From positions 128,001 to 192,000 of the forward strand of contig OY970209.1 of the NCBI GenBank assembly GCA_963713855.1: DNA of 64,000 bases, written 5' to 3'. Below, one piece after another: positions 15,001-18,000 of the stretch (position 1 is its first letter; each line of letters begins with the position of its first letter). This DNA is from an uncultured bacterium. GTDB lineage: Bacteria > Babelota > Babeliae > Babelales > Babelaceae. Made by a program: the position numbers.

Positions 15001-18000
15001 ACGTAAACTTGCTGCACTCATTTATCCATTTGAGCAATTGCACGGCCGCTGTGCTGCTTTAGCTGAGCGAACTGCTCAGATCTTTGTTGAAAAAATACTT
15101 GCCCGTAATGCCACCCTTGTTATGGACAGCCTTCTTACCAAGCAAAAGGGCCAGCGCGGAAGGCCAACAATCGAGGAAAAGCGTCGCGCAGAACTGTACC
15201 CTAAAAAGACTATCGATCAATTCTGGAAAGAGACAACTAATGAGTTGCCCTGCCGTTTCCAGCTTCTTGATAAAGAAAAACCAAGTATACTTCTTGATAA
15301 TGCGAGAAACCTAGACGCATTCAAAAATCTTCTTCTTGGTATTCGCTTGCTTCATTACCAAAGACCGCTTAAAGGCTTGAGCATCGTTGTTGCTGCTGCG
15401 CACAATACGCTGCACAACGAAGAGTTTCTCAAACTCCTTCGCTATTTCTTCAAAAAGACTTCAGGTCAACTTTTCATTTGCCCTATTGAGGATGCTCTAC
15501 CTGGACTTCAAGAAGAGACCACTTGGAATGTTGAGCAAGTGACCAATGATGTTAAAAGCATGAAGATTAAAGCTCGAGCATGTAAGAATTTTGAAGAAGC
15601 GCTCGATCTTGCTAAAAAGTCTGTTGATGAGCGTAGTGGATTGGTTGTTGTTACCGGTTCACAATCGATTATCTACCAGTACTGGAAGCAAAAAGGCATC
15701 AAAAAGCTATAACCCCTTCGAGGCAGGGTTATGCACCCTGCCTCTTTTTTTTGCCCTTTTTTGCACGAAGTGCTTGCATGTAACGTAAGACACGTGTCGT
15801 GTCTTACGTTTATTTACGGGCAACGCCCGACTGGCTTGAGGTGCAGGAGGCACATAAGCGCGGGACCCTCGCTTTATGTTCCCGCCGCTGAACGCGTAGT
15901 TCGCTTTTTTTGTAGTTTGCTTTTTTTAAAGCCACTATTTTAACAGTTGCATGCTTACGACCTTCCTCTTATACTGTTAAAAAGGCCTTTACCAAAGGAC
16001 ATAACTACTGTGCAATCGATGGAACTTTTTGAGCAACATACCTGGCGACCCTTTGAGGCTATGGGTTTTACGCATTCTTTTTGGTCTCTCAACAGAGAAA
16101 CGATCCTTTACACATGGGTTGTCTTAGGCATACTTACAGTATTTGCCCTTTTTGTGCGCTATTTTATACGCAGGCCTGATACGATTCCTGGAACTATTGC
16201 GGAGACGTATGTACGTTCGTTCATGCAAATGATTACGCAGACGCTTGAGTATTTTGAGTATCGTTACTGTGCTTTTATCGGATCACTTTTTACGTTCATT
16301 TTCGTATGTAACGTGCTCATTCTTTTTCCCTACATGGAAGAGCCGACCAAGGATATTAACACGACGCTGGCACTTGCGATTATTTCATTTTTATACGTAC
16401 AGAAAGAGTCTATTCGTGCTCATGGTATTGGTGGCTATATTAAGGAATTTTTTAAGCCCTTTTTCATTTTTTTCCCACTAGAAGTACTTGGGCGGCTAGC
16501 GACTGTTGTATCACTTTCATTTCGCCTTTTTGGAAACATTTTTGGCGGCTCCATTATTAGCACCATGTGGAATTACGCTATATCAGGCTCGATTTTAGCT
16601 CAGATTGCTGGTACTTTGCTTGGTATAAACATTGTAATCATGCTTTTTTTTGGTATTTTTGAAGGCTTTATCCAGGCCTTTGTATTTTCTATTTTAAGCT
16701 TAACGTACCTTTCTATGGCAGTTTCTGAGGAGCAACATGAATGACCTAGCCCACTCATTCACAGTCGCGTCATTGGTTGTTCTGCCTGCCTTAGGTGTAG
16801 GCATTGGCCAAGGTCGCGTGAACAAGGCTGCTGTTGAAGCGATTAACGAGCAGCCTGCTGTTGAAAGCGCTATTAGGCGATTAGCACTTATTTCACTCAC
16901 CTTAAGTGAAACGGCTGTACTTTTAGGCGTCGTTATGGCGAGTCTGATTCTTCGTGGCCCTGTTTTAAAAGCACCGCTTAATCTTTCTTACATCGGAATC
17001 ATCTTTGGCTGCGCTATTCCTGGCTTTATGGTCGGTCTTGTATCTGCGGGTCCTGGTATTGCTGCTCTAAAAGCTGCAGCGCGTCAGCCGCTTTTCATTG
17101 CCAAAATTACTCAACTTTTACTGATTAGCCAGGCCGTTATTCAAACTTCGACCATTTTTGGCTTTATTATAGCGCTCGTTTTACGAAGCCAGGCTTCGAC
17201 AGGAAACTCATCTGATGGCATACGCCTATGTATGAGTGGGGTATGCTTTGGTATTGCGGTTATCGGACCACTTTTGGGCCTAGGCTTTTTTACGAAAGCG
17301 GTGTGCACTGTTGCAGGCCTTAACAGAGCTATTTACCCGCGCCTTAGAACCTTTGCTTTTATAAGCCAAGCGCTTATAGAAGCACCGGTCGTTTTTTCGC
17401 TTATCATCGCACTTGTTTTAGCTATAAGCGGATCTAAAAGCCCCTCTATTGCAAGAAACGCAGCTTTTATAGCGGCAGCATTTATTATGGGACTTACAAC
17501 GCTTGCAACAGGCCTTAATTCAAGCCGCACTGCAACAACCACCGCCAAACTTCTTTCTAAATACCCTGATCAGTACCCTACCCTATCGAAAATGAGCATG
17601 GTCACCCAAACCTTCATCGACACTTCAGCAATTTACGGGCTTCTTGATTGCCTTATCATACTCTGGGCAAGCTAAAAATCGGACATTAATCATTGATTTT
17701 TATCTATAATTTATTCTAATATAAAATTATAAGTTTTATTAAACGGAGAATGTATGAAAAAGCACGTACTATGCTTGACGCTCTTTCTTTTCATGTCTTC
17801 TGGAGTGCAAGCACTTCATGAGGCATCTTACACTAAATCAAACTCATGGGCCACGGCCATTGAAAAATTACTGTCTCCACTCTTTCAAGAATTAATGCCC
17901 GCAGATGAAGTTACAAGTTGGATCTCATGGGCTAGCGGATTAGTCAAAAAAGTCGCATCAACAATAAGCGAATAAAAGCTGCCCTTTGTTATTTTTAAAA

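Follow-up and report, generated by a model that had tools for sequence, protein, structure and literature searches.

Fused rotor subunits are the textbook route by which A- and V-type enzymes altered their ion-per-ATP ratio. Half of the ion sites have been lost in V-type proteolipids such as E. hirae NtpK (2BL2) and the eukaryotic V-ATPase c subunit (two hairpins, one site), and three-hairpin c forms occur in methanogens. In A. woodii, an acetogen making ATP by its enzyme, a fused and a single c gene adjoin in one atp operon; the gene of the fused subunit c1 (PDB 4BEM chain J) comes after atpB, and the organism also has a one-hairpin c whose ligands are of the Na+ type. In the publications consulted, this two-hairpin c1 is the only fused F-type c cited. 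According to the available text of a 2026 preprint on rotary ATPase evolution (10.64898/2026.10.01.756066), the A. woodii ring is a Na+ rotor of nine-plus-one composition, c1(c2/3)9, and the c subunit of Methanopyrus kandleri has 13 hairpins. Linked hairpins have also been engineered in Bacillus PS3 FoF1 as single-chain c-rings which, in the accessible part of that article, rotate and pump, single-site changes tuning the activity (PMC8809890).

The window analysed here is a stretch of 64,000 nucleotides (positions 128,001 to 192,000 of contig OY970209.1) from an uncultured bacterium of the order Babelales. It encodes an F-type c subunit of four hairpins, hereafter c4, which is conserved and whose gene lies beside the sole a-subunit gene of the genome. 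The features concerned, in window positions, are:

14288..15712, + strand: folC-like gene (Mur-ligase family; weak Pfam Mur_ligase_C/M matches), the kept upstream neighbour of the a-c4 pair
16010..16744, + strand: F-type ATPase subunit a (atpB), sole copy in the genome (PF00119, E 2.2e-40)
16523..16525, + strand: Arg codon of the SFRLFGN motif in subunit a, read from the translation
16737..17675, + strand: four-hairpin fused c subunit (c4), 312 aa, from open reading frame, Pfam and AF2
16737..16967, + strand: hairpin 1 (residues 1-77) with Q25, loop NEQP and E58 (GAA, 16908-16910), then T59 and A60
16968..17207, + strand: hairpin 2 (residues 78-157) with loop ARQP and, at the ion site, Q136 (CAA, 17142-17144)
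17208..17438, + strand: hairpin 3 (residues 158-234) with loop NRAIYP, which has no RQP, and E215 (GAA, 17379-17381)
17439..17672, + strand: hairpin 4 (residues 235-312) with loop KYPDQYP and D295 (GAC, 17619-17621), then T and S, with Y at D295+5

The usual F-type c consists of one hairpin of about 70-90 aa, whereas c4 has four hairpins in 312 aa. Its ATG is preceded by GAGGAG at a spacing of 6 nt. PF00137 matches the whole protein in 4 stretches (E 2.5e-23, 82.5 bits for a cut-off of 24) and, in a six-frame search of the genome, hairpins 1-4 were each found within a single open frame with E-values of 1.0e-10, 4.0e-4, 1.9e-4 and 4.3e-5. The AF2 model (pLDDT 92.9, pTM 0.88) consists of eight long helices, a short break interrupting one of these, and the top PDB matches in Foldseek are 4bem_J and 2bl2_A, the latter with a TM-score on the target of 0.84. 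The genome-wide survey's note had described a polypeptide of four tandem c hairpins with a separate Pfam match to each quarter, a pLDDT of about 92 and 4bem_J and 2bl2 as closest solved relatives; each of these points was recovered, with E-values of the same order as the earlier ones. By sequence, the best solved relative of the c4 family profile is A. woodii c1 (4bem_J, E 7e-20). Furthermore, F-type c models score top among the NCBIfam models, the single-hairpin equivalog cut-off being passed only by TIGR01260 (45.2 versus 43.95). Membership in the V/A-type was considered and rejected, as the V-type K model NF005124 reaches 28 bits against a cut-off of 127 and the resemblance is one of fold only.

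Hairpins 1, 3 and 4 carry Glu or Asp in their second helix and hairpin 2 has Gln instead. Reading of the codons confirmed the residues named in the survey, E58, Q136, E215 and an Asp in hairpin 4, which is D295. Three hairpins of c4 are thus predicted to bind the ion, via E58, E215 and D295, and the Q136 hairpin would be ion-blind. In 161 family members the hairpin 1 site is E in 157 and D in 4, and the hairpin 3 site is E in 156. Gln is found at the hairpin 2 site in 126 of the 161 (E in 27, other residues in 8). At the hairpin 4 site, 104 members have D and 50 have E, the few remaining ones having N (4), Q (2) or G (1); since the column is made of D and E in these proportions, D295 is most likely a working site. 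It may be a slower one, since the available part of the Bacillus PS3 study reports that replacing E by D at the site of c reduced activity (PMC8809890). The pattern of live sites varies across the family (EQED, EQEE, EEEE, EQEN): 127/161 members have three carboxylates per c4 and 25/161 have all four, the latter suggesting that the ion-blind position is inessential to the c4 design. As for the ion-blind hairpin 2 itself, it is under conservation equal to that of the other hairpins, with a mean majority fraction of 0.53 compared to 0.46-0.55 for the others and 0.21-0.32 for the linkers. The loops are kept unequally. For the R-Q-P polar loop of c, taken here as the place where the central stalk would dock, conservation across the 161 members is high in hairpin 2 (R 94%, Q 91%, P 100%). 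Hairpin 1 retains the QP part (Q 97%, P 86%), and hairpins 3 and 4 of the same members retain neither RQP nor QP.

Compared to the described systems, c4 shares with A. woodii c1 the F-type lineage and the fusion of hairpins, the Glu and then Gln of c1 being aligned with E58 and Q136. However, c1 has two hairpins (four helices) and c4 has four, of which hairpins 3 and 4 keep their carboxylates. V/A-type proteolipids are likewise of several hairpins with sites lost, but belong to another lineage and have lost half of their sites compared to usually a quarter in c4. The archaeal multi-hairpin c subunits also have several hairpins per chain and some sites lost; they belong to A-type enzymes, whereas c4 is F-type by sequence and is encoded beside an F-type a. 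The PS3 fused c-rings, unlike c4, are artificial and hold all ten hairpins in one chain. The same design principle is seen in metagenomic multi-hairpin F-type-like c sequences, in which P0178 has 4 hairpins (E,E,E,Q), P0126 and P0166 have 5 (E,Q,Q,Q,Q) and P0151 has 5, all with E. In a FastTree subsample the hairpins of other lineages group in one clade (SH-like support 0.92), separate from the five hairpin types of the Dependentiae; hence the c fusions look independent.

The open reading frame of subunit a has a GTG at 16010 and an ATG at 16019, and the Arg of its SFRLFGN motif is presumably the essential stator arginine. PF00119 has a single match in the 1.52-Mb genome, and the 3' end of the gene overlaps the start of c4 by 8 nt, in agreement with the survey, which had placed c4 over the end of the only a gene. 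The survey had also found the two genes adjacent in 6 of 6 loci, an observation that now extends to 48/48: subunit a is directly 5' of c4 in both sets of loci compared (11/11 and 48/48), with a gap ranging from -17 to +28 nt and an overlap in 28 of the 48. A folC-like homologue lies 5' of a in 9/11 related loci. No F1 or stalk genes were found near the a-c4 pair.

A c4 match is present in 258/261 genomes of the order Babelales, which make up the whole phylum within the genome collection searched. At E<=1e-15, c4 is found in 253/261 genomes and in 188/189 of the high-quality ones, and 229 representatives were obtained at E<=1e-30. The protein collection holds 37 homologues of 185-345 aa besides c4 itself. 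Both this number and the 258 of 261 genomes are those given in the survey.

The genome also encodes a one-hairpin c of 85 aa (C1:547264-547518 in contig coordinates), about 402 kb from c4, in a cluster with the order c, 125-aa ORF, 166-aa ORF, delta and alpha and with no a gene, as the survey had stated for its second atp operon. In the relatives listed, this free c is on other contigs than c4 or far apart from it, and in 47 related loci none was found within 2.5 kb downstream of c4. The placement is unlike that in A. woodii. Free c carries the ligands Q32, E65, T66, S67 and F70, and of 30 orthologues 28 have Q at the first of these positions, all 30 have E at the second and T or S at the third, and 24 have S at the fourth; the Q/E/T(S)/S pattern corresponds to the Na+ ligand set as described in the accessible part of PMC2359735. 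At the place of the RQP loop it has GKYPES, as do 20 of the 30 orthologues. Free c is detected at E<=1e-14 in 253/261 genomes. In four genomes only c4 was found and free c is seemingly absent (G110, G141, G145 and G202). Alpha is absent too in G141 and G145 and begins at a contig end in G110, which points to an assembly gap in these three; completeness is 67% for G202 and 66% for G113. Hence no genome convincingly without free c was found among the 261.

The genome has one gamma, one epsilon, one alpha, one beta and one a subunit. A second rotary ATPase using one of the two c forms was considered and rejected, as the PF00006 matches in the genome are alpha, beta and a third protein which is Rho. 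Since alpha, beta and a are each single-copy, both c forms must serve one enzyme. With respect to the physiology of the host, the genome carries three TLC genes in tandem and a single membrane pyrophosphatase, as previously noted, and PF00361 and PF00115 have no match in it. The survey's picture of an ATP importer without respiration is supported as far as these markers go, import by the TLC genes and lack of respiration by the absence of the two families. The membrane pyrophosphatase passes the cut-offs of both the 'sodium-translocating' model NF001960 and the H+ model TIGR01104, so that the model names do not decide between Na+ and H+. Moreover, the ATP-driven ion pumping proposed in the survey agrees with the interpretation of the phylum's ATP synthase as a reverse-running, ATP-driven pump in the available parts of two publications (PMC4776705, PMC6561590).

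Together with these observations, the reading that we favour, and hold to be fairly probable, is a hybrid rotor similar to that of A. woodii, in which c4 and free c would form part of an ATP-driven, possibly Na+, pump, the membership of c4 in the ring being inferred. c4 would be a rotor (c-ring) subunit of the single F-type rotary ATPase, would be produced together with the stator subunit a since their genes overlap, and would most likely share its ring with copies of the 85-aa c, as c1 does in the c1(c2/3)9 ring. It may be the part of the ring that seats gamma and epsilon, given the RQP and QP loops in hairpins 1-2 and the GKYPES loop of free c. Considering the lack of a respiratory chain and the import of ATP, the enzyme should run as an ATP-driven ion pump keeping the membrane energised, its host being a non-respiring ATP importer in contrast to A. 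woodii, and the ion may be Na+ since free c has the full Na+ ligand set. Gene order does not speak for co-assembly of c4 and free c, as the two genes are about 402 kb apart or on other contigs. A more specific form of the hybrid, which we regard as tentative and rather doubtful, is an asymmetric two-part rotor with a single c4 as keystone, produced 1:1 with a by way of the gene overlap, as the sole RQP seat of the stalk and with the sites E, E, D and one blind, the rest of the ring being filled by the Na+-type free c. If true, the enzyme would be obligately ATP-driven, pumping Na+ with an irregular step pattern built in, and it would represent a natural F-type rotor that splits stalk docking and ion carriage over two gene products.

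The same a-c4 linkage could be read in favour of a ring of c4 alone, for instance of three copies with 12 hairpins, 9 sites and 3 ions per ATP, in which case free c would form an alternative ring under another condition or life stage or have another task. Indeed, a and c4 adjoin or overlap in 48/48 loci while free c is encoded elsewhere, the (R)QP loops are found in c4 and not in free c, and single-chain whole rings exist in other lineages (P0121 with about 12 hairpins, P0155 with about 14). However, free c is as widespread as c4, with no convincing genome lacking it, and two ring types would have to be served by one a and one F1 set. Moreover, there is one subunit a per enzyme, and the a-c4 overlap would suggest roughly equal synthesis of the two proteins and not several c4 per a. 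A complex prediction with three c4 copies gave a score of 0.00 compared to a mark of 0.42 and speaks neither way. Taken together we consider the c4-only ring unlikely. We judge it improbable that c4 is an accessory membrane protein derived from c and not part of the rotor, such as an assembly scaffold for a or an ion-conducting partner of a independent of F1. The absence of F1 and stalk genes from its neighbourhood and the loss of RQP from the loops of hairpins 3 and 4 would fit such a role, but phylum-wide the c-site columns retain three carboxylates in exact register, hairpins 1 and 2 retain the RQP loop, the protein folds simply as c hairpins in a row and the sole a gene, needed by any rotor, is tied to c4 and not to free c.

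The alpha gene raises the question of whether the system is decaying in this one genome and c4 is a relic. In this assembly alpha, at 548.9-550.4 kb of C1, is frame-disrupted, with one in-frame TGA and two stretches in other frames, the frame changing five times over about 430 nt; the genome may hence lack a working F1, unless this is an assembly error. Against a relic, c4, a, beta, gamma, epsilon, delta and free c each have an uninterrupted frame and alpha is intact in 37/40 other family genomes. Alpha is broken in two further genomes, which like this one are single-contig assemblies, and after every disrupted stretch the original frame resumes, both of which favour a local consensus error. 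Decay is accordingly a very improbable explanation.

Under both ring models the ion-to-ATP ratio would be less altered than was proposed. The survey had predicted fewer carboxylates per hairpin and a V-ATPase-like gearing, which is overstated: usually a quarter of the sites is lost compared to half in V-type proteolipids, 127/161 members lacking one of four sites and 25/161 none. The 3 ions per ATP of a ring of three c4 would fall inside the range of 2.66-5.6 ions per ATP quoted for ATP synthases, and if free c joined c4 in a hybrid ring, still fewer sites would be lost.

As regards the origin of the hairpins, a quick ML tree and the FastTree subsample agree in that each hairpin type forms one clade and hairpins 1 and 2 pair, and disagree on hairpin 4, which groups with free c or with hairpin 3. 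Profile comparisons gave 108 for hairpin 4 and free c, 93 for hairpins 3 and 4, 93 for hairpin 3 and free c, 73 for hairpin 1 and free c and 58 for hairpins 1 and 2. A simple 2+2 duplication, with hairpin 1 close to 3 and hairpin 2 close to 4, receives no support from these comparisons and was discarded.

In the literature searched, no description was found of a fused c in this phylum or of a four-hairpin F-type c, although the supplements of the 2026 preprint and of the TM6 paper could list the gene; the available text of the preprint makes no mention of Dependentiae or Babel (10.64898/2026.10.01.756066). Throughout this phylum of ATP-importing parasites, a four-hairpin F-type c has become fixed, always together with a normal c. 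The varying number of live sites among c4 members offers a natural experiment on how rotor build sets gearing, and a second one concerns whether unlike parts can make up a ring. Cultured members of the phylum exist, so that the ring could in principle be purified and its subunits counted. Routine annotation labels the c4 gene plain 'subunit c', a label which the present finding corrects.

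The four-hairpin fused c subunit (c4) and the ATP-synthase subunit a (a) lie in the window as follows.

16010 to 16744, plus strand: subunit a, starting with GTG at 16010 (PF00119, E 2.2e-40).
16737 to 17675, plus strand: c4 open reading frame, 312 aa (PF00137 in four stretches).

Against the whole of c4, the PF00137 (ATP-synt_C) model gives an E-value of 2.5e-23 and 82.5 bits for a cut-off of 24, and a six-frame search of the genome matches the hairpins one by one within a single open frame (E 1.0e-10, 4.0e-4, 1.9e-4 and 4.3e-5). The AlphaFold2 model, built from a 35-sequence alignment (pLDDT 92.9, pTM 0.88), displays eight long helices arranged as four hairpins with short linkers between them. 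The genome-wide survey's note had described one polypeptide of four F-type c hairpins, and the four PF00137 stretches together with the eight modelled helices bear this out. The best solved relatives of c4 are F-type c subunits: a profile search finds Acetobacterium woodii c1 (4bem_J) at E 7e-20, while Foldseek with the c4 model returns 4bem_J at E 1.1e-4 and Enterococcus hirae NtpK (2bl2_A) at E 2.2e-4, with a TM-score on the target of 0.84.

Subunit a carries the motif SFRLFGN and is the sole PF00119 match in the 1.52-Mb single-contig genome. The final 8 nt of its gene form the start of c4, so that c4 does overlap the only F-ATPase a gene, as had been claimed, and GAGGAG is found 6 nt upstream of the c4 start. 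The adjacency reported in relatives extends to every locus compared, a being directly upstream of c4 in 11 out of 11 loci and in 48 out of 48 of a larger set, with a gap of -17 to +28 nt and an overlap in 28 of the 48. Just 3' of c4, a 73-aa ORF (17754-17975, plus strand) shows a signal-peptide-like start; it displays no Pfam match and no homologue in 11 related loci.

The reported conservation of c4 across Babelales holds as well, with a match in 258 of 261 genomes (some 300 residues aligned, the open frames being about 320 aa long). The phylum-level search covers the same 261 genomes, order and phylum being equivalent in this collection. At a stricter E<=1e-15, c4 is present in 253 of the 261 genomes and in 188 of the 189 high-quality ones. 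The word-indexed protein collection holds 37 homologues of 185-345 aa, and an exhaustive library gives 229 representatives at E<=1e-30, most of them of 305-325 aa and matched over one full-length stretch. By their record names, 47 c4 loci are assigned to Candidatus Dependentiae, Babeliales, TM6 and Vermiphilus pyriformis. At one locus, L025 (genome G008, contig C12), the match covers residues 1-177 only, in a 207-aa open frame, with further matches in the genome; c4 may be split or truncated here, or the assembly may be at fault.

The one-hairpin free c is conserved as widely as c4 (253 of 261 genomes at E<=1e-14), and among the 150 matches listed every open frame measures 82-154 aa. None was found within 2.5 kb downstream of c4 in the 47 related loci; free c is distant from c4 or on a different contig. 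A PF00137 search shows c4 without free c in four genomes, three of which are accounted for by assembly gaps.

The ion-site residues of the host c4 are E58, Q136, E215 and D295, with codons verified. The sites were tallied in 161 sequences, namely 35 aligned ones and 126 of the 150 listed representatives (290-335 aa in length).

Residues at the ion sites of hairpins 1 to 4 (n = 161)
EQED: 90
EQEE: 25
EEEE: 19
EEED: 6
EQEN: 4
Other patterns: 17

Counting carboxylates, three remain in 127 of these c4 sequences, all four in 25, two in 8 and a single one in 1. Because D and E replace each other freely at the fourth site, D295 is read as a live ion site. The ion-blind hairpin 2 is conserved as well as the other three hairpins, and its cytoplasmic loop keeps RQP (R 94%, Q 91%, P 100%). 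The loop of hairpin 1 keeps QP, the motif is not kept in the loops of hairpins 3 and 4, and the free c loop reads GKYPES in 20 of 30 orthologues.

A quick maximum-likelihood tree of 170 hairpins places each of the four hairpin types, and free c, in a clean clade of its own (support 79-93), with hairpins 1 and 2 as a pair (support 91). FastTree on 70 of these, to which 19 hairpins were added from multi-hairpin proteins of other lineages, recovers the same clades and pairing and sets the foreign hairpins apart (0.92). The trees conflict on the nearest relative of hairpin 4, free c or hairpin 3, with few informative columns. As far as these sequences go, it holds that the four-hairpin build is older than the sampled radiation, and the fusion looks independent of like fusions elsewhere (proteins P0178, P0126, P0166, P0151 and P0121). 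The representative search also found whole-ring-sized c proteins: P0121, from a cluster of 12 members, has 968 aa and about 12 hairpins, each of them with Glu, and P0155, listed by NCBI under hypothetical proteins of Promethearchaeota / Hodarchaeota, has 1139 aa and about 14 hairpins.

The atp genes of the host are split among four places, the other three being:

C1:547-550 kb: free c (85 aa), 125-aa ORF (weakly b-like, E 6e-5), 166-aa ORF, delta, alpha.
C1:294-296 kb: beta and epsilon.
C1:634 kb: gamma.

A third PF00006 match was rejected as an ATPase subunit, being Rho. The host carries a single gene each for a, alpha and beta; hence both c forms have a single enzyme to serve. Its alpha gene (G000 C1:548921-550415, or L007:10922-12415) contains one in-frame TGA and two stretches sensible only in other frames; compared with a same-genus protein, five frame changes occur in about 430 nt, the frame being restored after each. 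Of 40 further genomes in the family, 37 have an open alpha frame of about 490-535 aa; in G023 and G029, each assembled as a single contig, alpha is broken, and one genome (70% completeness) gives no match. The frame changes in the host are probably a local consensus error.

With both c forms retained phylum-wide and only a single a and a single F1 present, the simplest reading would be a single ring containing c4 and free c, as in A. woodii, whose ring comprises one two-hairpin c1 and nine single c according to the text of a 2026 preprint (10.64898/2026.10.01.756066). In both organisms the fused gene follows atpB, its first two hairpins carry Glu then Gln, and the one-hairpin c has Na+-type ligands. 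The a-c4 overlap suggests similar levels of synthesis for a and c4, consistent with a ring that would hold one c4 or a few, and the RQP loops of c4 suggest that the central stalk might sit on it. No description of c4 was found in the literature searched or in the text of that preprint; fused rotor subunits as such are a known class.

As for the coupling ion, the Na+-binding c subunits described in PMC2359735 use Gln32, Glu65 and Ser/Thr66 together with a polar position 67, and Tyr70 has a stabilising role. The host free c has Q32, E65, T66, S67 and F70, and its 30 orthologues show Q in 28, E in 30, T/S in 30, S in 24 and Y at position 70 in 25; judged by these residues, the ligand set of free c matches the Na+-binding one. 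The c4 sets are partial (Q25, E58, T59 and A60 in hairpin 1; S, D295, T, S and Y in hairpin 4), and the host pyrophosphatase passes Na+-named and H+-named models alike. Coupling to Na+ is therefore a lead rather than a result.

In the host genome, TLC genes of the ATP/ADP translocase family form a tandem of three (C1:915360-919525; open frames of 486, 461 and 447 aa), a membrane pyrophosphatase is present, and the respiratory families PF00361 and PF00115 are absent. Published accounts describe the phylum as lacking a respiratory chain, with the ATP synthase probably running in reverse (PMC4776705, PMC6561590). Together, these observations make an ATP-driven pump the most likely role of the enzyme. 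The survey's further proposal of V-ATPase-like gearing lacks support in that form: with three c4, a ring would have 12 hairpins and 9 sites (3 ions per ATP), and in a hybrid ring one site of perhaps 10-13 would be lost, while known synthases span 2.66-5.6 ions per ATP and even V-type c does not prevent ATP synthesis (both from PMC9171764). What remains of it is a modest lowering of the ratio.

Three other proteins were noted in the window. The 426-aa product of 18068-19348 (minus strand) has a lactonase-type seven-bladed beta-propeller (PF10282, E 8e-25); it also contains repeats of the motif LPSGS...AFSP.G, and its C-terminal part includes a hydrophobic stretch. At 13551-14003 (minus strand) lies a type IV pilin-like protein bearing an N-terminal methylation motif (PF07963, E 3e-8), in keeping with published reports of type II secretion / type IV pilus genes in the phylum. 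Finally, the 240-aa cytidylyltransferase-like protein at 19977-20699 (minus strand; PF01467, E 2e-14) may be a nucleotide adenylyltransferase.
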